Shown here piece by piece: positions 14,276-54,896 of a DNA stretch of 64,000 nt. Origin of the DNA: Eubacteriales bacterium (lineage in GTDB: Bacteria; Bacillota; Clostridia; Oscillospirales; JAAYXM01); contig JAZQFJ010000097.1 of assembly GCA_045539475.1 (NCBI GenBank), positions 343-64,342 of the forward strand. The letters are read 5' to 3'. Every line of letters starts with the position of its first letter. The stretch's first letter is position 1. The translations under genes and the position numbers were made by a program. The notes below the pieces were generated by a model. The model saw nothing but the letters and a program-made list of their open reading frames with translations, had not been told where the DNA came from and searched no databases.

Positions 14276-14290
14276 CCAATGCACTAAAGT

Positions 14291-15574: not shown

Positions 15575-15581
15575 AAGTTAA

Positions 15582-24423: not shown

Positions 24424-24683
24424 AAAACCACCAACCTTTCATCGGTATCAATAACAATGCTTTGCTTTTCTCCGAGAACATACGCCATCTTCGAATATTG
24501 CTTTTCCGTTATGGCAAGCATTTGTATAATTCCTTTTTCAGGTGAAGCTTCACGAACTTTTTTCATTATTGATTCCAATACAGTTATGTTAAGGGCAAGC
24601 TTGCTGTAAACAGAGTTTTGGACCATAATAAATCCGCTTTTAATTAGGAATTTGCGAAATCTTGAATATGCTCTGCGCTTGTC
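24420..24683 (-). pseudogene. cas2: cas2 lacking its N-terminus
   Basis: Frame reads DKRRAYSRFRKFLIKSGFIMVQNSVYSK...ITEKQY...DERLVVL; the N-terminal strand with the catalytic Asp and the start codon are absent. Confidence 0.9.
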
Positions 24684-24711
24684 GCGAGATTACAACCGTT
24701 CGCCAGCTCAT
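24682..24711 (-). pseudogene. cas1: cas1 remnant (first ~10 codons only)
   Basis: ATG overlapping cas9 stop (ATGA) encodes MSWRTVVISR, the typical type II Cas1 N-terminus, then runs out of frame into cas2 sequence and stops at 24640. Confidence 0.85.
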
Positions 24712-28739: not shown

Positions 28740-28741
28740 AC

Positions 28742-28770
28742 TTGACATCCCCTTTTTAATGTGATATATT
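28742..28770 (+). promoter_or_regulatory. tracrRNA promoter overlapping the cas9 RBS/start region
   Basis: TTGACA-17 nt-TATATT just upstream of the anti-repeat. Confidence 0.7.
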
Positions 28771-31281: not shown

Positions 31282-31360
31282 ATTCCCATCACCCTTATGT
31301 CGAACTATGTCTATTATACTTGAAATGTGCAAAAATTTCAAGTACAAGTGCTTCTGGATG

Positions 31361-31389
31361 TTGATTTTGTGCAAATTGTGTGCTATAAT
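31361..31389 (+). promoter_or_regulatory. Sigma-A promoter heading the DGC/polysaccharide cluster
   Basis: TTGATT-17 nt-TATAAT with TG extension. Confidence 0.55.
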
Positions 31390-31482
31390 TAAATAGCATA
31401 TATAATACAATGCCATAGTTATATATTGCGGGCGTGTATCACACAAAATTTTTTGTGTGATGTAATGATTAGAAGAAAGAAG

Positions 31483-33789
31483 ATGCAGATAAAAATGGCA
31501 ATAACTTATGAAAGAAAAAAGCAAAAGCACAGTAACATTTTATACACAATTATCACTGCGGTTTTAATATGTGCGGTTTTTTTGGCTATGGTTACGACTT
31601 TTTACATCAAGGCTGAGGACGATGCTTATGAAATGCTTCATATCCAGACAAAGCAGATAAAAGACGATTTAACCTTGCAGCTAAAATCGGACAGAGAAAA
31701 TCTTGTTACGATGGCAAGCTTTGCAGCAAAGCTTTACTCAGACGGTGAAAGCTATAACCTTATGTTTGAATCGTTTAAACCCATTGGCTTGCTTTCTAAT
31801 ATTGGTATATTAAATCCCGATAATACCTTTGTTACAAAAATGGGCTCGGTTAATCTGAACGGCAAAATTTCTTTTTCGGAGGAAGCTGCGCGCGGAGAAT
31901 ACATAAGCGGAAGAATCCCCGATCTTACGAGTGATGGAAAAGAACTTATAAGAAGCGCAGTTCCTATTAAAGTGAATGGAAAAACAGTTGGCATTTTATA
32001 CGGTGTAATTCCGCTTGACACGATAGGTGAAAAATATAACAATATGGCAAAAGAGCTTGATGCTCAGCTTTTTGTTTATGATAAAAAAACAGGAAAATTT
32101 GTTATAGACACACTGGGTAAAAACCCCGGCGAACTGTCGGATTTTAAGGACAGAGAATATAATAACGGATATTCTTATGAAGAGTTAGCTAACAATGATA
32201 AAGGCTATTCTTCGTTCAGGTCGATACTTACAGGGGAGGATTTGTACATTCATTATTCCACCCTTGAGGATTTTGGCTGGGGACTTATGCTTGCACGTTA
32301 TGAAAATCAGGTGTTTGCGGAAACGCATAAAATATCCCGCAATCTGTTTATTGTTTTTGCTTCAATCATTCTGATTGTATTAATTTACCTTGAGCTGATA
32401 TTAAACAGCGAAAAGAAAAGATCAAAATTAAATTCAGAAGCTTCAACCATCAGACATCTTCTTTTAGAAATAAACCAACAGCACGAAAACATAAATTCGG
32501 CTTTAAAGCGAATAAAAGAGTTTTCGAGTGCACGTTCCTGCTTTTTTGCGGATACCGACGGAGAAGATCATTACTATATCAGACCTTCTTTAAAAGAAAA
32601 ACGTTTGTTGGGAGACGAAAGAAAATATTTTATCGGTGAGCTTTTCAGGTATGCCGCGAAAATCCATACCGGCGATTCTTCTACAGGCTTTATGCGAATT
32701 ATTCCGAACGGACATCTTCTGAAAACGAATCCGGAATTATATCACTTTTTGTTAAATAACAGCATCAAAGATGTATCTTTTGCTATTATAACTGACAAAA
32801 ATAACCATGTCAGCATCCTGGGAACAATAAATCCCAAGAGAAGCTCCGATATCAGAAAGCTTATTGAAGATGTTGTAATTTGCTTTTCAATCGCTATATA
32901 CAACAAAAAACATCTTAACAGAACGGAGCTTGCCGCAACAACGGATGCACTTACCGGAGCTTTAAACCGTGTTGCATACAAAAAGGATATCCTGATGTTT
33001 GATAAAGAAAAACCGGAAGAATTTTCATGCATTTATATTGATGTTAATGAGCTTCACATCAGAAACAACAAGTACGGGCACGCCGCAGGCGATGAGATGC
33101 TTATCTATATTGCCAATTCGTTAAAAGAAGTGTTCTTCGGACATAGCATTTACCGTATGGGCGGCGATGAGTTCTTAGTATTCACAAAGAAAATCTCACA
33201 GAACGATGTCAAGCAGAATATAGAGACATTTATTGAGCAATTGAAGCCTATGGGTTACAATGTGGCTATCGGTATGTCTTACAGAATGAAAAACACAAAC
33301 TGCGAGGAAATGGTAAGAGAAGCTGAAGTAAGAATGTATGAAGCAAAGGCTCAGTATTATCAGAACAAAGAGCAGATAAGCATTTCTGAAGACAAAGACA
33401 AAAATTATGTTTACACGAAAACAGGAATAAGAGAAATTGATACTATGATATCCGTTATGAAAGAGCATTACAACGGCATATACAGAGTGTCGCTTGAAAG
33501 TGACAATGCTCACAGAATTCTTATGCCTGCTTATCTCGGTTACAAGGAGGATGAAGAAAACTTCTCAAAGTTGCTCTCAAAATACATTCACGATATTGTT
33601 CATCCTGATTTTAACAGAGCTGTTATGAGCTTCTTGAATTATGATGCAATAAAAAGGCAGATTTCGGAAGGTAAAACACCGTCAATTACATACAAAAAGA
33701 CACATGGCGAAACGGTTACGCTCAGCGTATACAACCTGACCAACGATAAAGATAATGTAAAAGATACTCTTTGGGTTTTTGCCAAATAA
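31483..33789 (+). CDS. Membrane sensor diguanylate cyclase (TM-Cache-like-TM-GAF-like-GGDEF-PAS-like)
   Basis: TDALTGALNR, DVNELHIRNNKYGHAAGD, intact RMGGDEF; two TMs flanking an extracellular domain; domain names other than GGDEF are tentative. Confidence 0.88.
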   Translation: MQIKMAITYERKKQKHSNILYTIITAVLICAVFLAMVTTFYIKAEDDAYEMLHIQTKQIKDDLTLQLKSDRENLVTMASFAAKLYSDGESYNLMFESFKPIGLLSNIGILNPDNTFVTKMGSVNLNGKISFSEEAARGEYISGRIPDLTSDGKELIRSAVPIKVNGKTVGILYGVIPLDTIGEKYNNMAKELDAQLFVYDKKTGKFVIDTLGKNPGELSDFKDREYNNGYSYEELANNDKGYSSFRSILTGEDLYIHYSTLEDFGWGLMLARYENQVFAETHKISRNLFIVFASIILIVLIYLELILNSEKKRSKLNSEASTIRHLLLEINQQHENINSALKRIKEFSSARSCFFADTDGEDHYYIRPSLKEKRLLGDERKYFIGELFRYAAKIHTGDSSTGFMRIIPNGHLLKTNPELYHFLLNNSIKDVSFAIITDKNNHVSILGTINPKRSSDIRKLIEDVVICFSIAIYNKKHLNRTELAATTDALTGALNRVAYKKDILMFDKEKPEEFSCIYIDVNELHIRNNKYGHAAGDEMLIYIANSLKEVFFGHSIYRMGGDEFLVFTKKISQNDVKQNIETFIEQLKPMGYNVAIGMSYRMKNTNCEEMVREAEVRMYEAKAQYYQNKEQISISEDKDKNYVYTKTGIREIDTMISVMKEHYNGIYRVSLESDNAHRILMPAYLGYKEDEENFSKLLSKYIHDIVHPDFNRAVMSFLNYDAIKRQISEGKTPSITYKKTHGETVTLSVYNLTNDKDNVKDTLWVFAK

Positions 33790-34201
33790 TAAAGTCGATA
33801 GCAAACGGAGGAATCATGAATTGACACTGCAAGTAATCAGGTTCGCAATTGTGGGAGCAATTTCCGCTTTTGTGGATGTGGGAGTTCTTGTTGCATTAAA
33901 AGAGCTTTTGTGCGTGGATGTCCTTATTTCTTCCGCAATCTCTTTTTGCGTTTCCGTCACGGTAAACTATTTTTTGAGTATGACCTTTGTTTTTAAAGGT
34001 AAAAATCAAAGTAAGCTTTATGAATTTATAATTTTTGTATTGCTTAGTCTTGGAGGACTGATGTTAAATCAGTTGATTTTGTGGATTGGTGTTAAATTTA
34101 CGTCCGTATATTACCTTGCAGTGAAATTTTTTGCTATGGTAATTGTGCCGTTTTATAACTTCATAACAAGAAAAATGTTTCTTGAGTCAAAGAGAAAATG
34201 A
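33779..34201 (+). CDS. GtrA-family small flippase
   Basis: RFAIVG, NYFLS..FVF, NFITRKMF; 4 TMs; start uncertain. Confidence 0.85.
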   Translation: MPNNKVDSKRRNHELTLQVIRFAIVGAISAFVDVGVLVALKELLCVDVLISSAISFCVSVTVNYFLSMTFVFKGKNQSKLYEFIIFVLLSLGGLMLNQLILWIGVKFTSVYYLAVKFFAMVIVPFYNFITRKMFLESKRK

Positions 34202-34213
34202 GTGTGAAACGTT

Positions 34214-34756
34214 ATGAACAATGTTTTCAAAAAAGATTTATACAGATATTACGGCGAAAACAGAGCTCCGCTTTTGAAAAAGATATTCGCGCCGCTTGAA
34301 TTAAAATACATATCTGTGTTCAGAAAAGCAAATATGTGCAAAGTTTTGCCTCTGAAGATTTTTTATATGTTAAGGCTTATGTATTTGTCGCATAGGACAC
34401 ATATTCAGATTCCGGCGCGAACGCGCATCGGAGAAGGCTTCTATATCGGACATCTCGGCCGTGTTGTAATTCACCCCGATGCAGTTTTAGGTAAAAATAT
34501 AAATGTTGGCACAGGTGTTACAATAGGTATGGAAAATCGCGGAAAAAGAAAAGGTGCGCCGCAAATCGGTGATAATTGCTGGATTGGAACAAATGCCGTT
34601 GTAGTTGGAAATGTTAAAATCGGCAGTGACGTTCTTATCGCGCCGCTATGCTATGTCAATTTCGATGTTCCGGACCACAGTGTTGTCATAGGAAACCCCG
34701 GAAAAATAATTTCCAAAGAAAATGCAACTGCAGATTACGTCTGTAACCGCGTATAA
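34214..34756 (+). CDS. Hexapeptide-repeat O-acetyltransferase (CysE/WcaB-like)
   Basis: IGEGFYIGH, GAPQIGDNCWIG, VVIGNPGKII. Confidence 0.88.
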   Translation: MNNVFKKDLYRYYGENRAPLLKKIFAPLELKYISVFRKANMCKVLPLKIFYMLRLMYLSHRTHIQIPARTRIGEGFYIGHLGRVVIHPDAVLGKNINVGTGVTIGMENRGKRKGAPQIGDNCWIGTNAVVVGNVKIGSDVLIAPLCYVNFDVPDHSVVIGNPGKIISKENATADYVCNRV

Positions 34757-34796
34757 AATCCGGATTGAGTTTGTTTCAGGGTAGGGAGGTGCCAAG

Positions 34797-36311
34797 GTGG
34801 AAGAAAAAGACTCCAGAATTAAAAACAATCTGGTATCGTCGCTTGTGTATCAGGTTGTGCTTATAACACTCAGCTTTCTTTTGCCGAGATTGTACCTTGA
34901 GAATTTTGGCTCAGAGGTCAATGGAGTTCTTTCTACGATCAAGCAGATTTTTACATATATGTGCCTTCTTGAGGCTGGCGTGGGGCTTGCCACAACTCAG
35001 GCATTGTATAAGAAAATCGGCGAAAAGGATTACGAGAGTGCAAGCTCGGTTCTTTCGGCGACCAACGTTTATTACATTAAAACCGGAATAGTATACCTCC
35101 TTATTGTTTTTGTCATTGCGGCAGTGTATTCTTGCGCAGTATCGACATCAATAAACAGTGCTGTGCTGTTTTTTATCATTATATTGAATGCAATTCCGAG
35201 CCTGTTCAGTTATTTTGTTCAGGCAAAATACAGAATCCTTATGGAGGTGGATGGCAGAAGGTATGTAATTAACAATGCTGAAACAGTGCTTCAACTTGCT
35301 TCAAACGCAGGGAAAATACTTGTTCTGCTCCTTACTGACAGCCTCGTTCTTATCCAATTGGTTTATTGCATAATTGCTCTTTTGCAGCTTGGCTTTTTGT
35401 ATATATACGCAAAGCGCAGATATATATGGCTTAATTTAAAGGCAAAGCCGGATTTTGATGCCATCTCTCAGAAAAATTCTGTTTTGGTGCATCAGCTTTC
35501 GGGAATGGTGTTCAACAACACCGATGTGATACTCATTTCTCTCCTTTGTGATTTTAAGGCAGTAAGTATCTATGCCATATACAATATCTTCTTTTCACAG
35601 GTGCAGAATTTCATAACGAATGTTGTTTCGTCCTTCACTTTTGCTTTGGGACAGATGTTTAATACAGACAGAGAAAAGTTTGACAAGCTGTTTAATGCAT
35701 ATGAAACCTTTTATATAATGATAACCTGCGTGATTTACACGCTCATGGCGGTGTTTTTGCTGCCTTTGATACAGATATATACAAGCGGAATAAATGATGC
35801 AGAGTATACAAATACATTTCTGTTGTTGCTGTTTGCAATAATGAATTTGCTTGCGTGCGGCAAGCTTCCTGCAACAGGTATCATTGAATATTCAGGAGCT
35901 TTTGAAAAAACCCGTTCTCATGCAATATTGGAAATGGTTATTAATATAACAGTTTCAGTTGTGGCAATTGCATATATGGGAATATGCGGAGCAATTCTCG
36001 GAACAATTGCAGCGCTTGTATATCGCGGGATAGTAACGATTTATTATTCAAATAGGAAAATTCTGAAAAGAAAACAAAGCTGTACATACAAAATCCTGAT
36101 TTCAAACTGGGCAGTTTTCGCTTTGGTTATGGCGGTGTTTTTTGTTGATACATTCAGCAATATGTCTTTTCTGCGGCTTTTGCTGAATGGAATAATCCAT
36201 TCAATATGGATTGCCGGGGTATACTTGCTTGTCAATTTTGCATTTAACAGGTCTGCGTTTAAAACGCTTTTTGAATTGTATAAGGGGAAAAGGGCATATG
36301 AGCATTCCTAA
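34797..36311 (+). CDS. Wzx-type polysaccharide flippase
   Basis: Multi-TM; FGSEVNG, LEAGVG, NTDVILIS motifs. Confidence 0.82.
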   Translation: MEEKDSRIKNNLVSSLVYQVVLITLSFLLPRLYLENFGSEVNGVLSTIKQIFTYMCLLEAGVGLATTQALYKKIGEKDYESASSVLSATNVYYIKTGIVYLLIVFVIAAVYSCAVSTSINSAVLFFIIILNAIPSLFSYFVQAKYRILMEVDGRRYVINNAETVLQLASNAGKILVLLLTDSLVLIQLVYCIIALLQLGFLYIYAKRRYIWLNLKAKPDFDAISQKNSVLVHQLSGMVFNNTDVILISLLCDFKAVSIYAIYNIFFSQVQNFITNVVSSFTFALGQMFNTDREKFDKLFNAYETFYIMITCVIYTLMAVFLLPLIQIYTSGINDAEYTNTFLLLLFAIMNLLACGKLPATGIIEYSGAFEKTRSHAILEMVINITVSVVAIAYMGICGAILGTIAALVYRGIVTIYYSNRKILKRKQSCTYKILISNWAVFALVMAVFFVDTFSNMSFLRLLLNGIIHSIWIAGVYLLVNFAFNRSAFKTLFELYKGKRAYEHS

Positions 36312-37032
36312 AGTGATTTATTATTGCTGGTTTGGAAAGGGAAAACTTCCGAAACTTGCACAAAAATGTATAAAAAGCTGGAAAAAATACTGTCCCGATT
36401 ACAGAATAGTCTGCATAAATGAAGAGAATTTTGATGTGAGTCAGAACAGATATGCCGCGGAGGCATATAAAGCCGGTAAGTGGGCGTTTGTCAGCGATTA
36501 TGCCCGGCTTTGTGTGATTTATGACAATGGCGGAATTTATCTGGATACAGACGTTGAGCTTATAAAGCCTCTTGATAAGCTTGTTGAAGAAAGCGGATAT
36601 ATGGGCTTTGACGATAACGGAATAATTTCAACAGGACTCGGCTTTGCATGCGAAAAGGGAAGTGAATTAATTGCCGCGTTGCTTGCGGATTATGAAGGAA
36701 TCCCTTTTATTCTTCCTGACGGCACATATGACATCACCCCCTGTCCTGAGAGAAACACAGAAACTTTGATAAAGCTCGGAATGGACATTGCCGATAAAGA
36801 TCAGGTGTTTATGGGAATGCGGATGCTGCCTGAAGATTATCTATGTCCGATGAAATATTACAGCGGAAGAAAAATAATAACCGAAAACACGTATTCAATA
36901 CATCATTTTTGTGCATCGTGGATATCTCCGACAGCAAAGAGAACGCTGTTTGTAAAACGGATTGTCGGTGTAAAGCTGTATGATAAGCTGTACGGAAAAT
37001 TTTTGCATAAATTCAAGTGGTTGGAGTGGTAA
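36298..37032 (+). CDS. GT32 (Och1-like) glycosyltransferase
   Basis: IPKVIYYCWFG, AFVSDYARL, GGIYLDTDV, IHHFCASW. Confidence 0.88.
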   Translation: MSIPKVIYYCWFGKGKLPKLAQKCIKSWKKYCPDYRIVCINEENFDVSQNRYAAEAYKAGKWAFVSDYARLCVIYDNGGIYLDTDVELIKPLDKLVEESGYMGFDDNGIISTGLGFACEKGSELIAALLADYEGIPFILPDGTYDITPCPERNTETLIKLGMDIADKDQVFMGMRMLPEDYLCPMKYYSGRKIITENTYSIHHFCASWISPTAKRTLFVKRIVGVKLYDKLYGKFLHKFKWLEW

Positions 37033-38585
37033 ACTTGCCTGAGAGAGCATTGAAAAAACTTAATGCATATATTTTGCCTGAGTGGAAGGTCTGTTTTTTT
37101 GCGGCTCTCGTGGTTGGCATACTTTCTCATCTGTATAAAATAACAAACTGGCTTCCTAATTGGGATTCGCTTGTGTTCAGATACGATTCGCAGAATATGA
37201 TTGGTCTCGGACGGTGGTTTTTGCCCGTTGTCTGTTCGTTCAGTTCGTTTTATGATTTACCATTTTTAAACGGTATTGTGGCAATTCTGTTTCATGCACT
37301 CGGCGCTGTTTGTATCTGCAGAATACTCAATGTCCGAAAAAAAATTACCGCATTTCTAATAGGAGCAGTAATTGTTTCGTTTCCTACGGTTACATCTGTT
37401 ATGATGTACAACTACGTGGCAGACGGCTACAGTATAGCGTTTTTTCTTTCAACGCTCGCGGCGCTGCATATGACTAAAGGAAAGAACGGATATATTATCT
37501 CAGCTGTGCTTATCGCGTTGTCAGTGGGTATTTATCAGGCGTATATTACCGTTACAATAATGCTTGTTTTATTTTGGCTGATTGATGAAATAATTTATAA
37601 TCACGAAGCTTTCGTGAATGTTCTGAAAAAAAGCGTGTGTATGATGCTGTCCGGAATATCCGGTATGGTACTGTATGGCATTATTCTAAAAGTGATTCTT
37701 GGTGTTTCTTCTGCAGAGTTGCTTGATTATCAGGGAATAAATTCAACGGTATCTTTGGCGAATATAGACCTGCCCGGCTCGCTTTATGCAGTAAAAGAAA
37801 CTTTTGTTAACTGCTTTTTTGATTTATCGGAAGGCGTAAATGTATATGTTGTTTTGAATGTTTTTATTTTGCTGTTCACACTTTCTCATTATGTTAAGTA
37901 TATAGTGAGAAATGAAATTTACAGGAAAACCATTAATGTTTTTGCTGTTGCACTCTTAGCAGTCGCGCTTATATTCGGAGCCGGTGCGCTGGCATTTGCA
38001 AATCCGGAAATTGATTATCACAATCTTATGCTTATGGGTTATTCCGTCTTTTATATATTTTTCATTATCCTTTATGAGAGGGGAAACGATACAAACGAAA
38101 GACATACCTGCATCAAGTGCTGGATTGTGCTGATAGCATCGGCGGCAATAATCACAAATCAGGTTGTTATATCAAATGTGAGTTATCATAAGGCGCAAAT
38201 CGCCTATGAAAAGTCATACGGTGTTCTTATGCGTATAGCAGACCGCATAGAAAAAACGCCCGGTGCGGAAAAATGCGATAGGCTTCTTGTTATCGGGGCA
38301 CTTAAAAACAGCGAAAGATACAGCGTTAACCTCTCGCCGGACATTACCGGAATAACGGATGGATATATAATCCGCGCAGATGATGAAACGGTAGGTCAGA
38401 GCGTGCTCAGCAGCGCACTCCGCGACTATTGTGAAATGGATTACGAGATTGTGAGCGGAGAAGAAAAAAAGATGCTGGCACAGAACGAAAAGATTGAAGC
38501 TATGGGCGAATGGCCGGCAAAGGACTGTGTGGTAGCAGTGGATGGCACGATAGTGATAAAGCTTGGAACAGAAGGTGAGTGTTAA
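37017..38585 (+). CDS. GtrII-family (GT-C) membrane glucosyltransferase
   Basis: GRWF and SVGIYQAY motifs, ~10 TMs plus C-terminal extracellular domain ending WP..D..IVIKL. Confidence 0.75.
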   Translation: MVGVVNLPERALKKLNAYILPEWKVCFFAALVVGILSHLYKITNWLPNWDSLVFRYDSQNMIGLGRWFLPVVCSFSSFYDLPFLNGIVAILFHALGAVCICRILNVRKKITAFLIGAVIVSFPTVTSVMMYNYVADGYSIAFFLSTLAALHMTKGKNGYIISAVLIALSVGIYQAYITVTIMLVLFWLIDEIIYNHEAFVNVLKKSVCMMLSGISGMVLYGIILKVILGVSSAELLDYQGINSTVSLANIDLPGSLYAVKETFVNCFFDLSEGVNVYVVLNVFILLFTLSHYVKYIVRNEIYRKTINVFAVALLAVALIFGAGALAFANPEIDYHNLMLMGYSVFYIFFIILYERGNDTNERHTCIKCWIVLIASAAIITNQVVISNVSYHKAQIAYEKSYGVLMRIADRIEKTPGAEKCDRLLVIGALKNSERYSVNLSPDITGITDGYIIRADDETVGQSVLSSALRDYCEMDYEIVSGEEKKMLAQNEKIEAMGEWPAKDCVVAVDGTIVIKLGTEGEC

Positions 38586-39452
38586 GTGGTATATCTTTGT
38601 GCCGATGATTACGGATTGTGCAAAGAAATCTCCGAACACATACAGCGGTGTATTGACGCGGGTGCGCTTAATAAGGTCAGCGTTTTCCCGAATTTTGACG
38701 CGGTGGATTTGCAGAAGATACGGAATAATAAAAACATCCGTATGTCCCTGCATCTCAACCTTGTCGAGGGAAAATGTATGTCAGAGGCTTATGAAATTCC
38801 CCTGCTTGCAGATGAGAAAGGGAATTTTAAGCAAACCTTTATCGGACTGCTGGTACATAGCTTAATCCATAGAAAAAAGTTTGAAGCGCAGGTGTGCAAG
38901 GAAATCAGGGCGCAGGTTTTATTTTGGAAAAAGGCGATAGGAGAAGATGTTCCTTTTTGCATAGACAGCCATCAGCATACGCATATGATTCCTGCCGTGT
39001 TCAGGGCGTTGCTTAAGGTTCTATGTGACGAAAAAATCAAACCGGAACACATAAGACTTCCCGCTGAACCGTTTTGGATATACATAAAAACACCGTCACT
39101 ATATTTCACATACAGTGTGGTTAATGTTATCAAACAATGGCTGCTGAGCTTCTTATGGCTGCTGAATAAAAATCAGGTAAAGAAACATAAAATACCGGTA
39201 TCGCATTTTTTCGGGATTCTTTTTTCGGGAAAGATGGATGAAAAAAGAGTAAGCAAAATTCTGCCGAAGTACGTTAAAATGGCAGAAAAAGACGGACAGG
39301 ATATAGAGGTTTTGTTCCATCCGGGATATATAGACAAAAACAAACTTGGTTTTAAAGAAAAAAATGTAGTGTTCGAAAAATTCTATATATCGGAAAACAG
39401 AAAAACAGAATTTGATTCTGTTATGAAAATATCAGAAAGAAGTGTGCTGTAA
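38586..39452 (+). CDS. ChbG/HpnK/YdjC-family deacetylase
   Basis: ADDYG, SLHLNLVEG, IDSHQHTH, FHPG. Confidence 0.85.
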   Translation: MVYLCADDYGLCKEISEHIQRCIDAGALNKVSVFPNFDAVDLQKIRNNKNIRMSLHLNLVEGKCMSEAYEIPLLADEKGNFKQTFIGLLVHSLIHRKKFEAQVCKEIRAQVLFWKKAIGEDVPFCIDSHQHTHMIPAVFRALLKVLCDEKIKPEHIRLPAEPFWIYIKTPSLYFTYSVVNVIKQWLLSFLWLLNKNQVKKHKIPVSHFFGILFSGKMDEKRVSKILPKYVKMAEKDGQDIEVLFHPGYIDKNKLGFKEKNVVFEKFYISENRKTEFDSVMKISERSVL

Positions 39453-40132
39453 TGCCCTACATCGAACAGGATAAGGTGGATGCAAAGACAAGAGAAAAAC
39501 TTGAGGCAATTATTGAAAAATCATATGCCTCTTACTGGAGGAAAAAAAGACTTTTCGACATCTTTTTTGCAACGCTGATTTTGTTGTTTTTTCTGCCGCT
39601 TATGATAGTTATTTCTTTGATAATCGTAATTGACGACCCAAGCGCAGGCCCTTTTTTCAGGCAGATAAGAGTTGGACGCCACGGGGAAGAGTTTTATATG
39701 TATAAGTTTCGGACTATGCGGGCTAATGCTGATGAGATGATTGAGGAGCTGGCTAAACGTAACGAAATGGACGGACCGGTTTTCAAAATGAGAGAGGATC
39801 CGCGAATAACGAGAGCGGGAAAGTTCCTGCGAAAAGTTTCTCTTGATGAGCTTATGCAGTTTTTCAATGTTCTTAAGGGTGATATGACGCTTGTGGGTCC
39901 GAGACCTCCTCTTCCGAGAGAGGTTGAGTTCTATACGGATTATCAGAAGCTGCGTCTTCTTGTTACGCCCGGCATAACCTGCACGTGGCAGATTTCAAAA
40001 AACAGAAATGATATTCCGTTTGAACAGTGGGTTGAAATGGATATCGAATACATACAGACAAGAACATATCTCAATGATTTGAAAATAATGCTGAAAACGC
40101 CGATAGTTATGCTTACAGCTACCGGCAGGTGA
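39452..40132 (+). CDS. Priming (undecaprenyl-phosphate) sugar transferase
   Basis: KRLFDI, YKFRTM, DPRITR, SLDEL, VGPRP, PGIT. Confidence 0.92.
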   Translation: MPYIEQDKVDAKTREKLEAIIEKSYASYWRKKRLFDIFFATLILLFFLPLMIVISLIIVIDDPSAGPFFRQIRVGRHGEEFYMYKFRTMRANADEMIEELAKRNEMDGPVFKMREDPRITRAGKFLRKVSLDELMQFFNVLKGDMTLVGPRPPLPREVEFYTDYQKLRLLVTPGITCTWQISKNRNDIPFEQWVEMDIEYIQTRTYLNDLKIMLKTPIVMLTATGR

Positions 40133-40153
40133 TTGGAATCCGGAGGGAAGAAA

Positions 40154-41278: not shown

Positions 41279-41291
41279 GGGTTTGTTAGAT

Positions 41292-42524: not shown

Positions 42525-42544
42525 TTTTGTGAGGAATAGAGAGA

Positions 42545-43900: not shown

Positions 43901-43917
43901 AGGGCTGAGGGAGGATA

Positions 43918-45798: not shown

Positions 45799-45837
45799 AA
45801 GCGTAATTATCAGCTTTAAGAGAAGGGGGGCAGACGT

Positions 45838-47142
45838 TTGGAAAGTAAAATTCTTGAGAAAACCAAAGTTTTTTACTTTATGGTTGTGGCTGTGATGATG
45901 TATTATTTTCTCAATGAATACATTGATATAGGTCTGCACGTTACATACCGCCATGCATTCGCTCTTGTTCTCTTCTTTTCTGCAGCGCTGCTGTTTCTCT
46001 ATAAACCTAATATTGCAAGGGGCGTTACGGCTTTTGGCGATGCGTGCGTTTACAGCGTTCCGCTTGCCGTCACAACTGTGGTTTCTCTGTTCATATGGTT
46101 TATGGAAACTGTGGATGTGGGAGTTATTTCGAGAGGACTTTCAAGCTCATTTATATATGCGAATATGTTGTCCTTTGCTCTGGCAGCCGGCGCAATGCTC
46201 TATATCTTTGGCAGACGCGGCGTGTGGTATAATCTTGCGGCTATTCTGATTGCGAACATCCTTATGATTGTAACAGTTATTGCCGAGAACGGTCTTGGAA
46301 ATTATATTTCAGAATTCATAACCCTCATAACTACCTTTGCAGGTGTGACGGGAGATATTATAGTTCAGGCAGAAATTCATGAGCTTGCATTCTGTCTTGG
46401 AGCGTATCTGATTTATATGCTTTTCAAACCGAAAAAGGATATAATATACTTTATACTGCTTCTTTTAAGTCTTTTCTGCTTCTTATCGGCATTCAAGCGA
46501 ATTGCAATTATCGCAATTGCAATAGCGCTTGTGTTTGGGTATCTTTTAAAATTCATTGCGCGATACAATAAAAAAACAGCAAGCAGACTTGTTACATTCC
46601 TTACGCTTGTTGTGATAATACTTCTCATAAGCTATATTGCACTTATCAAGGCAGATGCCTTTGAACTTCTCGAAAAAGCGGGAATAAATACAAGCGGACG
46701 CGTTGAAATTTATAATGCGGTAGACGATTTTTACGAATTCAATCCCGGTTTTTTAGGTAATGGAATAGGATTTCTTACATATCAGCTCAACACGTTTATG
46801 AATGTCGGTGTTGCCTCTGTTCACAACGATTTTCTCCAGCATTTTATTGATCTTGGTTTCTGGGGATATATTATATGGCTTGTTTCAATGACGTTGGTCA
46901 GAGTGTGGTATTTCGGAAGGCGTGGCAACGTAGAGAATGCAATTGTTGCATTTATGCTTACCCTTTATCTTATAATCGTATCCACAACAGACAACACAAT
47001 GAACTATCCGCTTCTCACAGGGGTTCTTGCAATACTGATGATGGGAAACGGATTTGAAAAAAATGTACGCGATACCGAGCTTAAAATGTTTCATTATGTT
47101 TCAGAGGAAAACAGGGAAGAGGAAAGTGACTCATTGTTATGA
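45838..47142 (+). CDS. Wzy polymerase / O-antigen-ligase-family protein
   Basis: ~11 TMs; KR after TM, SGR, GNGIGF, VHNDFL...LG motifs. Confidence 0.75.
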   Translation: MESKILEKTKVFYFMVVAVMMYYFLNEYIDIGLHVTYRHAFALVLFFSAALLFLYKPNIARGVTAFGDACVYSVPLAVTTVVSLFIWFMETVDVGVISRGLSSSFIYANMLSFALAAGAMLYIFGRRGVWYNLAAILIANILMIVTVIAENGLGNYISEFITLITTFAGVTGDIIVQAEIHELAFCLGAYLIYMLFKPKKDIIYFILLLLSLFCFLSAFKRIAIIAIAIALVFGYLLKFIARYNKKTASRLVTFLTLVVIILLISYIALIKADAFELLEKAGINTSGRVEIYNAVDDFYEFNPGFLGNGIGFLTYQLNTFMNVGVASVHNDFLQHFIDLGFWGYIIWLVSMTLVRVWYFGRRGNVENAIVAFMLTLYLIIVSTTDNTMNYPLLTGVLAILMMGNGFEKNVRDTELKMFHYVSEENREEESDSLL

Positions 47143-48347
47143 AAATTCTGATGGTAAATAAGTTTCTGTATCCCCGCGGGGGAAGCGAAAGCTATATGCT
47201 GTCTCTCGGGGCACATCTTGAAAAGATGGGGCATGAGGTAGAGTATTTTGGGATGTATGATGAAAAGAATACAAAAGGAAACTCGGCGGAAAAGTATACA
47301 CAGAATATGGATTTTCACTCAAACGGAGCAGGGAGATTTCTCTATCCTTTCAAGATAATTTATTCCTTTGAAGCAAAGAAAAAAATAATGCAGGTGATAG
47401 AACGCTTCAAGCCGGATATAGTACATATGAACAATATAAATTTCCAGCTTACCCCCTCGATAATCTACGGCATTAAGAAAAAAAAGATTCCGCTTGTTCA
47501 GACCGTGCATGATTATCAGATGATTTGTCCGAATCACCTTCTTTACAATTTTGACAAAAACTGCCCTTGCGAAAAGTGTGTTAACGGTTCACTTATCAGT
47601 TGCATAAAGAATAAATGCATTCATGGATCTGCGGTCAAGAGCGTTTTGGGTGTCGTCGAGGCAAAGCTTTATTCGTGGCTTCGCACTTATAAAAAGGTTG
47701 ATTTATTTATTTGTCCGAGTAATTTTCTTGAAAAGAAGCTCCTTGTGGCAAAGAAGTATTACAAGGGAAAAACAAAAACAATACATAATTTTATAAACAA
47801 AGAAGCATTCGCACCATCTGACCGGAAGGAAGACGACTACATTGTATTTGCAGGCAGGCTTTCGAATGAAAAAGGCATTGGGCATCTTGCCGAAACGGCA
47901 CGTCTTTTGCCGGAATATACTTTCAGGGTGGCGGGAAGCGGTCCCGATGCGGATATTCTCAAAAGTATTCCCAATATCAGACTTGAGGGGTTTCTTGAGG
48001 GCGAAACGCTGACGGAGCTTATGAAAAGCGCAAAGGTTCTTCTTTTGCCGTCTGTATGCTATGAAAACTGCCCGCTTTCCATACTTGAAGCACACTCTAT
48101 GGGTGTTCCCGTTGTTACGATGAATAGCGGCGGAATGGCAGAGCTTGTAAAAGACGGAGTTACCGGTACGCTTGTAAATGAGCCTACACCTGAAAAAATT
48201 GCGCTGAAAATAAAAGAAACAGTGGAAAATGAGGATTATTACAAGAGCCTTCGGGAAAATTGCAGAAATGAAAAGGATAATATCCTGAGCGTTGAAACAT
48301 ACAGCGATATTTTAATCGGAGAATATGAAAAGCTGATTGTGAGGTGA
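47139..48347 (+). CDS. GT4 glycosyltransferase
   Basis: GGSE, TVHDY, GRLSNEKG, ENCPLSILEA. Confidence 0.9.
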   Translation: MKILMVNKFLYPRGGSESYMLSLGAHLEKMGHEVEYFGMYDEKNTKGNSAEKYTQNMDFHSNGAGRFLYPFKIIYSFEAKKKIMQVIERFKPDIVHMNNINFQLTPSIIYGIKKKKIPLVQTVHDYQMICPNHLLYNFDKNCPCEKCVNGSLISCIKNKCIHGSAVKSVLGVVEAKLYSWLRTYKKVDLFICPSNFLEKKLLVAKKYYKGKTKTIHNFINKEAFAPSDRKEDDYIVFAGRLSNEKGIGHLAETARLLPEYTFRVAGSGPDADILKSIPNIRLEGFLEGETLTELMKSAKVLLLPSVCYENCPLSILEAHSMGVPVVTMNSGGMAELVKDGVTGTLVNEPTPEKIALKIKETVENEDYYKSLRENCRNEKDNILSVETYSDILIGEYEKLIVR

Positions 48348-48351
48348 GACC

Positions 48352-49410: not shown

Positions 49411-49420
49411 GGGATAAAAT

Positions 49421-51528: not shown

Positions 51529-51531
51529 AAA

Positions 51532-52896
51532 ATGCACGTTTTAGAATATCCATATGCGATTATAACTATTCTTGCGATAGTTTTTCTCGTGATGTGCCTT
51601 ATAGGACTGTACTTCACTGTAAAATCCGTAAAAACGGCAAAAGAAACGCCGGAAAAGAGTTTTTGCGGCATGGGTAAAATAGAAAATGATTTTGAACGGA
51701 TGGGAAATGCACGCCAAAACCGCTGTGTTGTATATATCTCAATATCGCTTGACAACATGAAGCGTTTGTATCCGGAATCGAGAGCCGGCAGGATGCATGA
51801 ACAGCTCAGGAAACTTTTGCTTGAGTTTTTTTGCATTGCTGCAGGCGGAGAAATTTCGATTTACGGAAAAGATAATTTTATTGTGTTGAGCAGATTGGAA
51901 GCAGAGAAAACGGAAAAATATATTGACAAATGCTTTGGAGAGATTAATGCACTTTTCGTAAAGCACAGTGCGGTAAATGTTGTCCGTGCGAATTTCGGTT
52001 ATTATTGCACAAGTGCAACAGATGTGCCGTTTAAAACCGCGCTTGGAAGAGCTAAGCAAGCGTGCAGTATGGCTGAGGACAAAGGCGTTTTGTATTGCAG
52101 ATGGGACAATCTCAACGGAAAAGAATTTGAAAGAAAAATAAAAATAGAAAACAGCATACACAACGAAATTGACAACAACAGATTTTTCCTTGAGTATCAG
52201 CCGATTATGGATGCCGGAACACAAAAAATCATAGGTGCTGAGGTTTTGTCGCGTCTTAATTCTCCGACAGAGGGAGTTCTCACACCGAACTTTTTCCTTT
52301 CGGCGGTAAACAATGTGGGGCTAAATGAAAAATTTGATTACTACATATTTGAAAAAAACTGCAAGTGGATTTCAAGCGATAAAGAAACACGTATGAAATA
52401 TGTATATACAATCAATTTTTCACGAAGCACTCTTTGTGATGCAAATCTGGCAGACAATATAATAAGAATTGTAGAAGAGTACGGTATTAATTATTCGTGC
52501 ATAGCAGTTGAAATTCTTGAGGATAAAAGCCTTAATGGTGAAGAAAAAGGAGTAATGGTTAAAAACCTATCCCGTTTGAAAGAAAAAGGCGTTCTTATTC
52601 TTTTGGACGATTTTGGTAAGGGCTATACCGGTTTTGGGGATTTGTCAGACTTTGATATAAGCATTGTGAAAATTGATAAGGCAATTACGCAGAATGCAGT
52701 GAATCCAACGGGAGCTCTGATTCTTAAGAACATTATCAGGACAGCACATGATTTGGGGTATAAGGCGTTGTGTGAAGGTATAGAGACCGAGGAACACAGA
52801 GAAATGGCAATAGAGGCAGGCTGTGATATGCTTCAGGGATATTATTTTTACCGCCCGATGCCGGTTGCAAAATTTGAAACTCTATTTAAAAAATAG
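51532..52896 (+). CDS. TM-degenerate GGDEF-EAL c-di-GMP phosphodiesterase
   Basis: YGKDNF replaces GGDEF; EAL domain with YQP, EVL, EILE, DDFGKGY, KID, EGIE, QGY. Confidence 0.88.
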   Translation: MHVLEYPYAIITILAIVFLVMCLIGLYFTVKSVKTAKETPEKSFCGMGKIENDFERMGNARQNRCVVYISISLDNMKRLYPESRAGRMHEQLRKLLLEFFCIAAGGEISIYGKDNFIVLSRLEAEKTEKYIDKCFGEINALFVKHSAVNVVRANFGYYCTSATDVPFKTALGRAKQACSMAEDKGVLYCRWDNLNGKEFERKIKIENSIHNEIDNNRFFLEYQPIMDAGTQKIIGAEVLSRLNSPTEGVLTPNFFLSAVNNVGLNEKFDYYIFEKNCKWISSDKETRMKYVYTINFSRSTLCDANLADNIIRIVEEYGINYSCIAVEILEDKSLNGEEKGVMVKNLSRLKEKGVLILLDDFGKGYTGFGDLSDFDISIVKIDKAITQNAVNPTGALILKNIIRTAHDLGYKALCEGIETEEHREMAIEAGCDMLQGYYFYRPMPVAKFETLFKK

Positions 52897-52908
52897 CAAG
52901 GTGATTTT

Positions 52909-53832
52909 ATGTTATCCGTAATCGTTCCTGCATACAACGAAGAAAAATGCATTAAGCGCGCATATTCTGCAATACATTCCGTGCTTACGGAGAATAATAT
53001 TGACAGTGAGTTTATTTTTGTTGATGACGGCTCATCCGACCATACGTATGAAGAGATATGCGAGCTTTCTTCGAAAGAAGAAAATATATCCGGAATTCGG
53101 TTTTCAAGAAATTTTGGCAAGGAATCGGCAATATCGGCGGGACTTGCCGCTGTGAGCGGAAGCTGTGCCGTTGTAATCGACTGCGACCTTCAGCATCCAC
53201 CAGAGAAAATAGTCGAAATGTACCGTTTGTGGGAAAAAGGCTATGAGATTGTTGAAGGAATAAAAAGAGAGCGTGGGCAGGAAAAAAAGACGTATAGAGT
53301 AGGGGCAAAAATCTTCTATTCTGTTATCAGCCGTATGGCAGGTTTTGATATGGCAAACTCATCGGACTTTAAGCTTCTGGACAGAAAAGTGGTGGATGTT
53401 CTGAACCGTATGCCCGAAAAAGGATTTTTCAGAGCGATATCTTATTGGGTGGGATATAACAAAACAACGGTTGAATATGATGTGGCTGAGCGCGTAGATG
53501 GTCAGTCAAAGTGGACAAGCCGGGGGCTTATAAAATATGCGCTTTCAAATATTTCGTCATATTCTACCGCACCGATGCAGACCGTAACGGTTTTGGGGGT
53601 TGTAATGCTTATAATCTCGGTCATCTTCGGTATATGGGCGCTTATTGATAAGATAATCGGCAGAGCGCTTGAAGGTATGACAACGGTTATAATTATCACA
53701 ATTTTCATAGGAAGCATAATTATGATAAGCCTTGGTATCATAGGTTATTACATCGCGCGTATTTATGAGGAAATCAAAGGCAGACCGAAGTATATAATAT
53801 CTTCTTCGGTGAAGAGTGTGAGGGGAAAATAA
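52909..53832 (+). CDS. GtrB-like polyprenyl-phosphate glycosyltransferase (GT2)
   Basis: VPAYNEE, DDGSSD, RNFGKE, DCDLQHPPE, two C-terminal TMs, EIKGRPKY. Confidence 0.9.
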   Translation: MLSVIVPAYNEEKCIKRAYSAIHSVLTENNIDSEFIFVDDGSSDHTYEEICELSSKEENISGIRFSRNFGKESAISAGLAAVSGSCAVVIDCDLQHPPEKIVEMYRLWEKGYEIVEGIKRERGQEKKTYRVGAKIFYSVISRMAGFDMANSSDFKLLDRKVVDVLNRMPEKGFFRAISYWVGYNKTTVEYDVAERVDGQSKWTSRGLIKYALSNISSYSTAPMQTVTVLGVVMLIISVIFGIWALIDKIIGRALEGMTTVIIITIFIGSIIMISLGIIGYYIARIYEEIKGRPKYIISSSVKSVRGK

Positions 53833-53864
53833 AAAGGTTTCTGTAACATTTTTTATATAATAAA

Positions 53865-54815
53865 TTGTACAAGGAGGTAGTGCAGAAAATGGACAAACTG
53901 ATAGTAAATATGCTTCTGTTCGCGCTTTTTGCGCAATCTGCAATTGTTGTAGCGTTACTTCTTCGTGGCAGACGGATTAAAAAGGAAAATGAAGCAGATG
54001 CCGAAGAGCAAAGCACCTATTTGCGCATCAGGGAAGAGGAAAGGAAAATAGCGGAAAACATTTCGGAGGGCATCAAAAACAGTGAGTTTAAGATGTATCT
54101 GCAGTTTATTGTTGACGGCAAAACGAAAAAAATTGTTTCTGCTGAAGCGCTTTCAAGGTGGGATAATCCCAAGCAGGGAATTATAATGCCCGTAAAGTAT
54201 ATAGGAGATATGGAAACAACGGGGCTTATCAGCAAGCATGACTTTTATATGTTTGAGCTTGCTTGCCGTCAGCTTGAAAAATGGAACGGCACGGAGTTTA
54301 AAGATATTTCTGTTTCCTGCAATTTCACAAGAATAACCCTTTCCGAAGGAAATCTTGTGGAAACCTTAAAAAAGATTTCAGAGAAATACAATTTTGATAA
54401 ATCAAAGCTTATAATAGAGATAACAGAGGATGCCATTGAAAAAGATAGGGAGGCTGCAAAGAAAAATGTTCTTCTTTGCAAAGAACTTGGTTTCAGAATC
54501 CATCTTGACGATCTGGGAAGCGGCTATACGTCTTTAGCAAATCTCTGTGATTATCCGATTGATGTTGTTAAAATTGACCGTGATATTCTCCTCAAAACGG
54601 ATACCCAGAAGGGAAAAGCCCTGCTGTCAGGAATTGTTGCACTTGTGCACAGACTCGGCATTTCGGTTATATGTGAGGGAGTGGAAACCGAGGAACAGCA
54701 CACGCTTGTGTCGGATTCCGGATGTGATTATATTCAGGGATGGTATTACTCAAAGGCGATGCCTTTGGAAGAATGTGAGTCATTTATAAAAAAACACGAT
54801 CTGAAGTTTTTGTAG
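53865..54815 (+). CDS. TM-EAL c-di-GMP phosphodiesterase
   Basis: EALSRW, EITE, DDLGSGY, KID, EGVE, QGW; one N-terminal TM; start uncertain. Confidence 0.88.
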   Translation: MYKEVVQKMDKLIVNMLLFALFAQSAIVVALLLRGRRIKKENEADAEEQSTYLRIREEERKIAENISEGIKNSEFKMYLQFIVDGKTKKIVSAEALSRWDNPKQGIIMPVKYIGDMETTGLISKHDFYMFELACRQLEKWNGTEFKDISVSCNFTRITLSEGNLVETLKKISEKYNFDKSKLIIEITEDAIEKDREAAKKNVLLCKELGFRIHLDDLGSGYTSLANLCDYPIDVVKIDRDILLKTDTQKGKALLSGIVALVHRLGISVICEGVETEEQHTLVSDSGCDYIQGWYYSKAMPLEECESFIKKHDLKFL

Positions 54816-54854
54816 AGATTGCGGCAGTGTTCGGATTCTGAATAAAACTGTTAA

Positions 54855-54896
54855 AAAAATCGGGCAGAACGATGATTTTCGTTCTGCCCGATTTTT
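54855..54896 (+). terminator. Terminator ending the polysaccharide cluster
   Basis: aaaaatcgggcagaacga/tcgttctgcccgattttt. Confidence 0.85.

Follow-up and report, generated by a model that had tools for sequence, protein, structure and literature searches.

The receptors PelD (Pel), PssE (Listeria), and YdaK (B. subtilis) read cyclic di-guanosine monophosphate (c-di-GMP) through the inhibitory site (I-site) of a degenerate GGDEF domain, and all three serve synthase-dependent polysaccharides. Pel of Gram-positive bacteria and the Listeria system have papers of their own (PMC7112168 and PMC4125290, respectively). The glycosyltransferase HfsJ is likewise a c-di-GMP effector of holdfast synthesis. 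Polysaccharide co-polymerases (PCPs) are the protein class that carries or binds the bacterial tyrosine kinase (BY-kinase). In the relevant passages of a 2025 review, c-di-GMP is assigned to synthase systems, and Wzx/Wzy systems are assigned to PCP-2 proteins with tyrosine kinase/phosphatase control (PMC12220298). Work on Caulobacter describes the holdfast pathway as wzy-type (PMC6372794) and HfsK as a c-di-GMP effector of it (PMC5362036), and a further paper deals with the N4-receptor glycan of E. coli, where NfrB and DgcJ form a local c-di-GMP module (PMC8669472). The subject of the present analysis is a gene cluster at 31.4–54.9 kb of a 64,000-nucleotide stretch of contig JAZQFJ010000097.1 (hereafter the window) from an Eubacteriales bacterium of the Clostridia that lives in the gut, whose genome (G000) comprises 2.98 Mb and is 97.4% complete. 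The cluster is one tightly packed 20-gene Wzx/Wzy polysaccharide operon (g1 to g20; Table 1), presumably read as a single transcript, and the makers, the breakers, and every recognisable candidate reader of c-di-GMP in this cell are encoded in it.

Two GGDEF matches and two EAL matches occur in the genome, and all four are genes of this cluster (g1 and g12 for GGDEF, g18 and g20 for EAL). The PilZ and HD_5 (HD-GYP) families and the c-di-GMP-II riboswitch had no match in the genome; the c-di-GMP-I riboswitch had none either, a result that is uninformative because the control genomes were silent too, and no Rfam family matched the window. The circuit is self-contained because the operon holds the only recognisable c-di-GMP genes of the genome, and since no other recognisable c-di-GMP part was found there, the target of the signal is most likely encoded in the operon as well. 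This genome-wide exclusivity is the strongest new support for the idea of a built-in c-di-GMP circuit, which had been raised in an earlier note made from the sequence of this DNA. The note had described a self-contained module of writer, reader, and eraser, and its self-containment stood, with the sole two GGDEF and two EAL matches of the genome lying in the cluster, but its reader did not stand in the same way, as g12 is without RxxD at the canonical I-site. The architecture that it had described was borne out: about 20 packed, co-oriented genes between one promoter (31361) and one strong terminator (54855), a sensor diguanylate cyclase (DGC) with an intact GGDEF motif and no RxxD as the first gene, two EAL proteins with intact catalytic motifs near the end (g18 and g20), a degenerate GGDEF domain fused to a biosynthetic protein (g12), and a cluster lacking genes for a BY-kinase, CpsB, or LCP. 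The resulting network is minimal: a single cyclase is joined by a pair of phosphodiesterases, and two further GGDEF domains are dead.

The 20 open reading frames (ORFs), all on the plus strand, run from 31426 to 54815 of the window in the ORF list, and the gaps between them range from -101 to +40 nt with the starts as listed. Ortholog alignments and tblastn coverage suggest better starts for g1, g5, g17, and g20 (Table 1), with which the gaps shrink further. The promoter-like site lies between g1 and a divergently oriented lipid-kinase gene on the minus strand. Inside the cluster, both promoter-like sites (47 observed vs. 50.5 expected) and terminator-like sites (19 observed vs. 15.5 expected) occur at chance level. 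The hairpin after g20 (∼54855–54896) has a folding energy of -31.1 kcal/mol (z = -8.26, with 0/200 shuffles as good); it is absent from the automated terminator scan, is evident in the sequence, and was folded separately.

The C-terminal GGDEF-fold domain of g12 (about residues 469–614) reads NGNGSF in place of GGDEF. An AlphaFold2 (AF2) model of the protein (pLDDT 84.2) places a first transmembrane (TM) helix at residues 15–35, an alpha/beta base whose long helices extend to residue 418, a second TM helix (TM2) at residues 433–467, and the GGDEF fold at about residues 477–614. In structural searches, the C-terminal part retrieved solved GGDEF domains at Z ∼18, and the top matches of residues 3–460 outside the GGDEF group were Wzc (9r62; Z 13.3, 249 residues aligned, root-mean-square deviation 12.5) and KpsE (8tsh; Z 11.7); Wzc was also listed by Foldseek for g12 (9r68; E 1.7e-5). 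A search of representatives showed the g12 family to be large, with 1528 proteins found at a threshold of E≤1e-3 and 130 left at E≤1e-30. The family alignment comprises 42 full-length members at 25–42% identity, 38 of which match Pfam GGDEF and 11 of which match Pfam Wzz (best Wzz E 3.1e-5), and the GGDEF motif is degenerate throughout the family, with the consensus YNGxGxF. The predicted identity of g12 is a Wzz/PCP-fold co-polymerase, an assignment that is based on topology, on the two PCP top matches, and on the Wzz matches of its relatives, because the Z scores are near a range in which caution is advised. Its cytoplasmic domain has a GGDEF fold and not that of a P-loop BY-kinase, and by motif and model this end of the protein is a GGDEF domain without catalytic function that takes the place of the BY-kinase of Wzc, which makes g12 a candidate reader or scaffold. 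At the cytoplasmic end of TM2, the juxtamembrane residues G456-R457-x-x-D460 (window 45283–45297) are near-invariant, being kept in 41, 41, and 38 of the 42 relatives, and N476, D481, R599 (38/42), and L601 are the other near-invariant cytoplasmic residues. The GRxxD sequence is an RxxD motif in a non-canonical place and could serve a ligand or a partner. Much longer family members also occur: G335 has an ORF of 880 aa (L121 9044–11686), and in G451 the open frame measures 1064 aa and contains one TAA (G451:C31:94268–96136), which suggests that these two carry extra C-terminal domains after the dead GGDEF domain.

The neighbouring g11 aligns with the ectodomain of g12 by BLASTP (E 4e-6 over 365 aa) and has no Pfam match; it is a distant paralogue of that ectodomain with the same TM-ectodomain-TM layout. 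The three-part layout g10-g11-g12 (41283–45798) recalls CpsB-CpsC-CpsD. For g10, a role as CpsB analogue or nucleotide phosphodiesterase was considered and received no support from any analysis.

The putative writer, g1, has the order TM helix, Cache-like ectodomain, TM helix, a linker of ∼170 aa, GGDEF domain, and a conserved C-terminal domain of ∼125 aa, with a GGDEF match at Pfam E 8e-18 and a sub-threshold match to dCache_1. Its motif reads RMGGDEF, FFGH occupies the place of the RxxD I-site, and no RxxD was found there in g1 or in its seven aligned orthologs. RMGGDEF and the columns of D520, N528/N529, and D537 are invariant in 7/7 g1 orthologs (55–76% identity); with the metal- and GTP-binding positions of the GGDEF domain being those that we presume, g1 is predicted to be an intact diguanylate cyclase. 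The strongly conserved domain behind GGDEF (window 33406–33789, residues ∼642–766 numbered from a start at 31483) matched no Pfam or NCBIfam family. Similarly, g18 and g20 have full-length Pfam EAL matches (E 3e-55 and 3e-59, respectively) and keep the ExLxR, N, ExxE, DD, K, EGxE, and QG positions, which we take to be the catalytic ones, and both are therefore predicted to be EAL phosphodiesterases with a complete catalytic set, that is, erasers. In g18, these residues are unchanged throughout its orthologs (7/7, 30–67% identity), and the EAL domain of g20 aligns end to end with solved phosphodiesterases, with the catalytic positions kept relative to the MorA EAL domain (4rni). The AF2 model of g18 (pLDDT 82.6) consists of an N-terminal TM helix, a GGDEF-like beta-alpha fold at residues 47–190, and the EAL domain, and its best Foldseek match was the tandem GGDEF-EAL protein MorA (4rnh; E 1.4e-27 over 445 columns spanning both domains), followed by PA0575, DosP, PA0861, and LapD. 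At the GGDEF motif position g18 reads GKDNF, and the GGDEF-like domain is therefore dead; Pfam GGDEF recognises this part only in the g18 orthologue of G021. A comparison of g18 orthologs with the g12 family by hhalign (probability 27%, E 6.9e-4 over the GGDEF-like part) is superseded by this fold match. A predicted complex of g18 (residues 35–454) with the cytoplasmic part of g12 (430–626) scored 0.00 against a mark of 0.32, which is evidence neither way. The predicted role of g18 is that of the core-conserved eraser, or possibly of a trigger enzyme.

The remaining genes of the operon were annotated, like those above, with Pfam and NCBIfam profiles. The inventory that had been drawn up earlier (priming transferase, flippase, Wzy-like polymerase, and six further glycosyltransferases) was right on the priming transferase g8 and the polymerase g13, is only a lead for the flippase g4, and fell short on the further glycosyltransferase-like genes, of which there are eight (g5, g6, g9, g14 to g17, and g19). 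The match of g8 to NCBIfam EPS_sugtrans (E 1e-75) stays below the cut-off because g8 is a short form. No match to Pfam even at E≤1 and none to NCBIfam was found for g4; its closest neighbours by Atlas features are clusters with Polysacc_synt/MatE that go by the name flippase (scores 0.99–1.00), the similarity to the genome's own Wzx by BLASTP is weak (E 0.002 over 41 aa), and g4 is probably a diverged Wzx, as a lead and not as proof. The genes g2, g6, and g19 look like a Gtr-like three-part set for side-chain glycosylation (GtrA, GtrII, and GtrB/PgfS-like), and by tblastn all three are absent from the clusters of G025, G021, and G035. Neither Pfam nor NCBIfam revealed a BY-kinase, CpsB, or LCP gene among the 20 ORFs of the cluster. 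A type II-A CRISPR-Cas set with Cas9 (1346 aa; REC, HNH, RuvC, and PI domains) and Csn2 lies ∼3 kb upstream of the cluster, on the minus strand (window 23815–28748).

Table 1. Features of the polysaccharide operon and its borders, in positions of the window, with the basis of each assignment.
Feature	Position	Strand	Basis
Upstream lipid-kinase gene, DAGK_cat/YegS_C (DAGK/YegS-type)	30418-31284	-	Pfam
Promoter-like site, sigma-70-like, extended -10	31361..31389	+	TTGATT, 17 nt spacer, TATAAT, TG before -10; 10/12 matches
g1, predicted membrane sensor diguanylate cyclase	31495..33789 (ORF listed from 31426; start inferred)	+	GGDEF Pfam, ortholog alignment
g2, GtrA-family small membrane protein	33779..34201	+	Pfam GtrA_DPMS_TM, E 2.5e-22
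g3, hexapeptide O-acetyltransferase, EpsC/WcaB-like	34214..34756	+	Pfam, NCBIfam
g4, multi-pass membrane protein, probable Wzx/MOP flippase	34797..36311	+	Atlas feature neighbours; lead only
g5, DXD glycosyltransferase (Gly_transf_sug/Caps_synth)	36298..37032 (start inferred)	+	Pfam
g6, GtrII-type membrane glucosyltransferase	37017..38585	+	Pfam Glucos_trans_II, E 1.4e-45
g7, YdjC-like carbohydrate deacetylase	38586..39452	+	Pfam
g8, small polyprenyl-phosphate sugar-phosphate (priming) transferase	39452..40132	+	Pfam Bac_transf, E 4.8e-64
g9, GT4 glycosyltransferase	40133..41278	+	Pfam
g10, membrane-anchored calcineurin-like metallophosphoesterase, YaeI-like	41283..42524	+	Pfam Metallophos, NCBIfam
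g11, PCP-like (TM, ectodomain, TM), without cytoplasmic domain	42545..43900	+	BLASTP to g12; no Pfam family
g12, predicted Wzz/PCP-fold co-polymerase with C-terminal degenerate GGDEF	43918..45798	+	Pfam GGDEF, AF2 model, structure searches
g13, Wzy-type polymerase	45838..47142	+	Pfam Wzy_C, E 2.3e-10, 40.9 bits vs. cut-off 31.7
g14, GT4 glycosyltransferase	47139..48347	+	Pfam
g15, GT2 glycosyltransferase	48352-49410	+	Pfam
g16, GT2 glycosyltransferase	49421-50440	+	Pfam
g17, GT2 glycosyltransferase	50437-51528 (start inferred)	+	Pfam
g18, predicted single-TM, degenerate-GGDEF-fold and EAL phosphodiesterase	51532..52896	+	Pfam EAL, ortholog alignment, Foldseek
g19, GT2 polyprenyl-phosphate glycosyltransferase, PgfS/ArnC/GtrB-like	52909..53832	+	Pfam GT2; NCBIfam PgfS E 2.6e-73, below cut-off
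g20, predicted single-TM EAL phosphodiesterase	53889..54815 (ORF listed from 53865)	+	Pfam EAL
Intrinsic terminator, 18-bp stem including A/U extension, then U run	54855..54896	+	sequence and folding

Among 61 related genomes, the source genome included, full-length g12 is found in 12, which belong to three GTDB families and carry it at 100–48% identity, the copy of G035 having an in-frame TGA. In all 12, a g18 orthologue lies on the contig of g12 and within the cluster, and a g1-type DGC lies within ∼13 kb of the cluster in nine; in G027 it is on another contig, and in G021 and G035 there is none nearby. Every GGDEF and EAL match is on the contig of the cluster in G000, G008, and G029, a GGDEF protein besides g12 is present in 12/12 of the g12-bearing genomes, and any GGDEF protein at all is present in 21/49 of the genomes without g12. 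By tblastn, six g12-bearing genomes share one syntenic cluster, with g3 to g5 and g8 to g18 in all six (except g3, which is missing in G027) and with g18 directly after g17 in 6/6. Beyond these relatives, one peptide pattern from a closer 8-row g12 alignment matched 225 species-representative genomes, and the best 80 of these 225 loci, all ≥76% identical, come from metagenome-assembled genomes titled Clostridia, Oscillospiraceae, Acutalibacteraceae, and the like, from ruminant and human gut. In these best 80 loci, all 66 with a downstream flank of at least 7.3 kb have g18 (66/66), all 73 with an upstream flank of at least 1.5 kb have g11 (73/73), and no CpsC/D/B-like gene was found within ±10 kb (0/80). 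These loci are close kin and therefore represent one cluster type and not independent cases.

The wider family was surveyed in an even sample of the class comprising 400 scored genomes, in which the g12 family profile at E≤1e-30 matched 81 genomes; ∼44 of them (G000 included, by our own row count) hold the full fused form, and the remaining profile matches are proteins of ∼450–490 aa that have the ectodomain only and often stand in tandem pairs. Twenty fused loci from different families (L121–L140) divide into 14 of the same cluster type (g12 67–87% identical) and six distant ones (27–51%), and in 20/20, the six distant ones included, a g11-like gene, g12, and a Metallophos gene occur together with Wzy and glycosyltransferases. 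The sole distant locus with a DGC or EAL gene nearby is L124, where a dCache-GGDEF-EAL protein stands at the head of the cluster; the genomes of the other five have 4–14 GGDEF matches in all, their own g12 included. The universal core is thus g10-g11-g12, and g18 and g1/g20 are features of the clade to which the window belongs. The earlier note had proposed that co-occurrence of the pair starting at 42545 and 43918 (g11 and g12) with DGC/EAL genes be searched for, and the association holds among close relatives (g18 in 66/66) but not among the distant clusters (1/6).

Orthologues of g1 (58–67% identical) and of g20 occur in sibling species without the cluster (G017, G015, G001, and G003), and in 3/4 of these the g20 orthologue has a weak GGDEF match before EAL. 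In G017, the two bracket another operon in the Pfam annotation (L037, G017:C10:110000–129900, at 4194–16209), which encodes VTC, DUF4956, CotH, a 723-aa protein without a family, a HEAT-repeat protein, and a synthase-like GT2 (Glyco_trans_2_3/Chitin_synth_2). In addition, ORFs of matching sizes lie between the g1 and g20 orthologues in G015 (L040), CotH, VTC, and DUF4956 adjoin the g1 orthologue in G001, and in G003 the two orthologues are adjacent and followed by a GtrA-like gene. With the operon of G017 and G015, the genus may possess another glycan system linked to c-di-GMP, one of the synthase type. In G007 and G044, the pair stands together at the head of the Wzy cluster, whereas in the window its members are found at opposite ends of the cluster. 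The EAL partner of g1 in the sibling genomes is the orthologue of g20, and g1/g20 thus behave as a movable writer/eraser cassette next to glycan operons, with g12 and g18 belonging to the Wzy cluster proper. The proteins of G027 are 85% (g12) and 89% (g8) identical to those of the window and those of G044 are 72% (g12) and 79% (g8) identical, compared with 70% and 71%, respectively, for PFOR, the one housekeeping gene used in this comparison. Similarity across genera that equals or exceeds that of PFOR, together with the low GC content of the cluster (0.397 vs. 0.444 for the genome) and its patchy distribution (12/61), suggests horizontal spread.

A phosphoregulation module is present elsewhere in the genome. 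One TIGR01007 (BY-kinase) match above the cut-off lies on contig C93, in a row of CapD-like, CpsC (Wzz+GNVR), CpsD, CpsB, and a 718-aa SLH-domain protein (G000:C93:50000–69900, L010 5463–11876), and no glycosyltransferase adjoins the CapD-CpsC-CpsD-CpsB genes; two LCP genes are also found elsewhere. Further PGT/Wzy/Wzx clusters lie on C53 and C68, one on each; LicD and Glyphos_transf are found in both, and neither adjoins CpsCD, and all three of its Wzx/Wzy clusters are therefore without CpsCD of their own. The BY-kinase occurs in 18/18 genomes of the genus and 29/31 of the family regardless of the cluster, and among the 12 related genomes that bear g12, G021 (97% complete) and G029 (77% complete) are the ones in which none was found. 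The kinase module thus belongs to the core of the genus and may or may not act on this cluster. The earlier note had held that c-di-GMP control stands here in place of phosphoregulation and that a cognate CpsD encoded elsewhere would speak against this. The claim stood in so far as no CpsBCD genes are in or near the cluster, and it was weakened by the unlinked CpsBCD module, core to the genus, whose CpsD on C93 (with the BY-kinase in 18/18 genus genomes) is in part the adverse finding that the note had named. Limited to the PCP that this cluster encodes, the proposal of control "in place of phosphoregulation" is plausible.

Taken as a whole, the findings are best explained by a Wzx/Wzy heteropolysaccharide operon that holds the cell's entire recognisable c-di-GMP set, acting on the co-polymerase, an explanation to which we give equal chances of being right and wrong. 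Post-translational control of this polymer by c-di-GMP is, taken alone, probable. A single transcript would span the operon between its promoter (31361) and its terminator (54855–54896), g1, with no product-inhibition site, would make c-di-GMP on an outside signal via its Cache-like ectodomain, and membrane-anchored g18 together with g20 would hydrolyse it, so that the pool would be local and short-lived. The best candidate target would be the co-polymerase module of g11 and g12, which adjoins the polymerase g13. The messenger, directly or via the dead-GGDEF-EAL protein g18, would determine how g11/g12 oligomerise or which conformation they adopt, and the activity of the adjacent g13 would follow from this, in parallel to the tyrosine phosphorylation cycle of Wzc and CpsCD. 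That the dead GGDEF domain of g12 binds c-di-GMP directly is possible, though we lean against it. The fullest version, in which g11/g12 form a second-messenger-gated co-polymerase whose dead GGDEF domain binds c-di-GMP, perhaps via GRxxD/R599, and thereby switches Wzy polymerisation or chain length as tyrosine phosphorylation does for Wzc, is tentative and somewhat doubtful.

Several results weigh against this explanation. There is no RxxD at the canonical I-site of g12, which reads KSKT in columns that are variable across the 42 relatives, and the catalytic D/E residues of GGDEF are lost; by known features, c-di-GMP binding by this domain would not be predicted, and because the canonical I-site is lacking, which is genuine evidence against a receptor of the PelD kind, the reader role of g12 is unproven. 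The PCP assignment of g12 is open to challenge on similar grounds, as a Z below ∼13 can, for helical proteins, arise merely from an arrangement that many of them share and the values for Wzc and KpsE (11–13, on a largely helical domain) fall within this range, Pfam Wzz (PF02706) matches neither g12 nor g11 even at E≤1, and hhalign of the g12 family with the genome's own CpsC gave a probability of 5%. Moreover, the related genomes are non-independent samples, and a DGC or EAL gene within ∼9 kb was found by Pfam at only 1/6 of the distant clusters, so that the built-in circuit is a feature of one clade and not of the family. The linkage of g1/g20 to this cluster could reflect recombination history, given that the pair flanks another operon in G017 and G015, and the unlinked CpsBCD module on C93 could act on this pathway.

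The last of these points leads to the reading that the unlinked CapD-CpsC-CpsD-CpsB module serves all three Wzx/Wzy clusters, with c-di-GMP at most an extra layer and no replacement. It draws on the single BY-kinase above cut-off, which is placed beside CpsC and CpsB with no glycosyltransferase adjacent, on the C53 and C68 clusters, which are also without adjacent CpsCD, and on the presence of the kinase throughout the genus and in nearly all of the family independently of the cluster. This cluster, however, unlike those on C53 and C68, brings its own PCP-like pair g11 and g12, its relatives in G021 and G029 occur in genomes where no BY-kinase was found, and none of the 80 related loci has a CpsC/D/B-like gene within 10 kb, and we regard the reading as unlikely. 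A rather less likely one accepts that the circuit controls the product and denies that the GGDEF domain of g12 is the receptor: the domain would be a structural, oligomerisation, or docking module that tethers g1/g18 by GGDEF-GGDEF contact, and sensing would fall to g18 as a trigger phosphodiesterase, or else to a site, so far unrecognised, in a transferase or in the conserved metallophosphoesterase g10. The missing canonical I-site of g12 fits this, as does the tandem dead-GGDEF/EAL structure of g18, whose fold matches include the receptor LapD as well as the regulated phosphodiesterases MorA, DosP, and PA0861; g18 is also conserved as strictly as g12 in the close loci (66/66), and g10-g11-g12 is kept even without a nearby DGC/EAL gene, so that g12 can work without a c-di-GMP enzyme in the cluster. 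The conserved cytoplasmic residues of g12 (R457 in 41/42, D460 in 38/42, N476, D481, and R599) suggest instead that the domain is no mere spacer and has a specific site for a ligand or partner, and g18 keeps all EAL catalytic residues, as expected for an enzyme.

It is very improbable that the DGC/EAL genes are passengers of island assembly or horizontal transfer that regulate something unrelated. The GC content of the cluster, its patchy distribution among the relatives, the closer similarity of the G027 cluster proteins than of PFOR, which suggests transfer, and the g1/g20 pair flanking another operon in sibling species would all be compatible with such an origin. The genome, however, has no other recognisable c-di-GMP target, g18 is fixed within the row of biosynthetic genes (66/66 loci), and the co-polymerase itself contains a domain of the GGDEF fold; even in G017 and G015, the pair flanks a glycosyltransferase operon with a synthase-like GT2, and the association with glycan synthesis therefore persists there.

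The explanation by a c-di-GMP circuit acting on the co-polymerase extends a known kind of regulation, the control of exopolysaccharide (EPS) by c-di-GMP, to a Wzx/Wzy co-polymerase. New are the operon-level circuit around such a co-polymerase that is also the whole c-di-GMP kit of a genome, the division between the g10-g11-g12 core and the clade-specific g18 and g1/g20 layers, and the unlinked, genus-wide CpsBCD module. No description of a PCP/Wzz-GGDEF fusion or of c-di-GMP binding to a co-polymerase was found in PMC open-access papers or bioRxiv, a search outside which subscription journals lie. The findings point to an undescribed, and still unproven, way of switching a common sugar-polymer pathway. 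As the genome is without other recognisable c-di-GMP parts, the operon comes near to a natural one-input, one-output system, in which no large network would interfere with the search for the target of the messenger. The g12 family is common in gut and rumen Clostridia (225 representative genomes; 81/400 sampled) and may shape the capsule or EPS of abundant commensals. If the fullest version given above is true, g11/g12 would represent a third, unrecognised regulatory class of PCP, present in ∼44/400 evenly sampled species of the class, and in this clade the module would act as a portable cassette, moving horizontally and supplying c-di-GMP signalling to genomes otherwise without it. Confirmation of the link would add a new regulatory class of co-polymerase and show how a signalling system can travel with its own target.

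Among described systems, the closest counterparts of g12 are Wzc of E. coli (PCP-2a; 9r62/9r68) and CpsC/CpsD (PCP-2b), with which it shares two TM helices, an alpha/beta base, and a long helical ectodomain. Like Wzc, g12 has a cytoplasmic domain of a nucleotide-binding fold after TM2 and adjoins Wzy in a Wzx/Wzy cluster, but this domain is a predicted dead GGDEF and not a P-loop BY-kinase with a tyrosine cluster. A further difference from standard Wzc and CpsC is the lack of a Pfam Wzz match, which only 11/42 of the g12 family have, and where CpsBCD loci have CpsB, g12 is found with a second PCP-like paralogue, g11, and with the metallophosphoesterase g10. Similarly, g18 resembles the tandem GGDEF-EAL proteins MorA (4rnh), PA0575 (5m3c), RbdA/PA0861 (5xgb), DosP, and LapD (3pjw), with which its model aligns over both domains, and differs from them in its degenerate GGDEF part (GKDNF), its single N-terminal TM helix, and the lack of a sensor domain.

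With PelD, PssE, and YdaK, g12 has in common a membrane-anchored dead GGDEF domain encoded in a polysaccharide operon with DGC and phosphodiesterase genes; those proteins keep RxxD and act on processive synthases, whereas g12 is without RxxD at that place, and its GGDEF domain forms one protein with a PCP in a pathway of the Wzx/Wzy type. The Caulobacter holdfast provides a precedent for the principle of post-translational c-di-GMP control of a Wzy-type polymer; its effectors are an acyltransferase and a glycosyltransferase, not a co-polymerase, and its DGCs and phosphodiesterases are global and lie outside the cluster. Likewise, the NfrB/DgcJ module resembles the present one in coupling a dedicated cyclase to one polysaccharide machine; it is synthase-type, works through a c-di-GMP-binding glycosyltransferase, and operates among many other DGCs and phosphodiesterases, whereas the operon described here holds the only ones of its genome.

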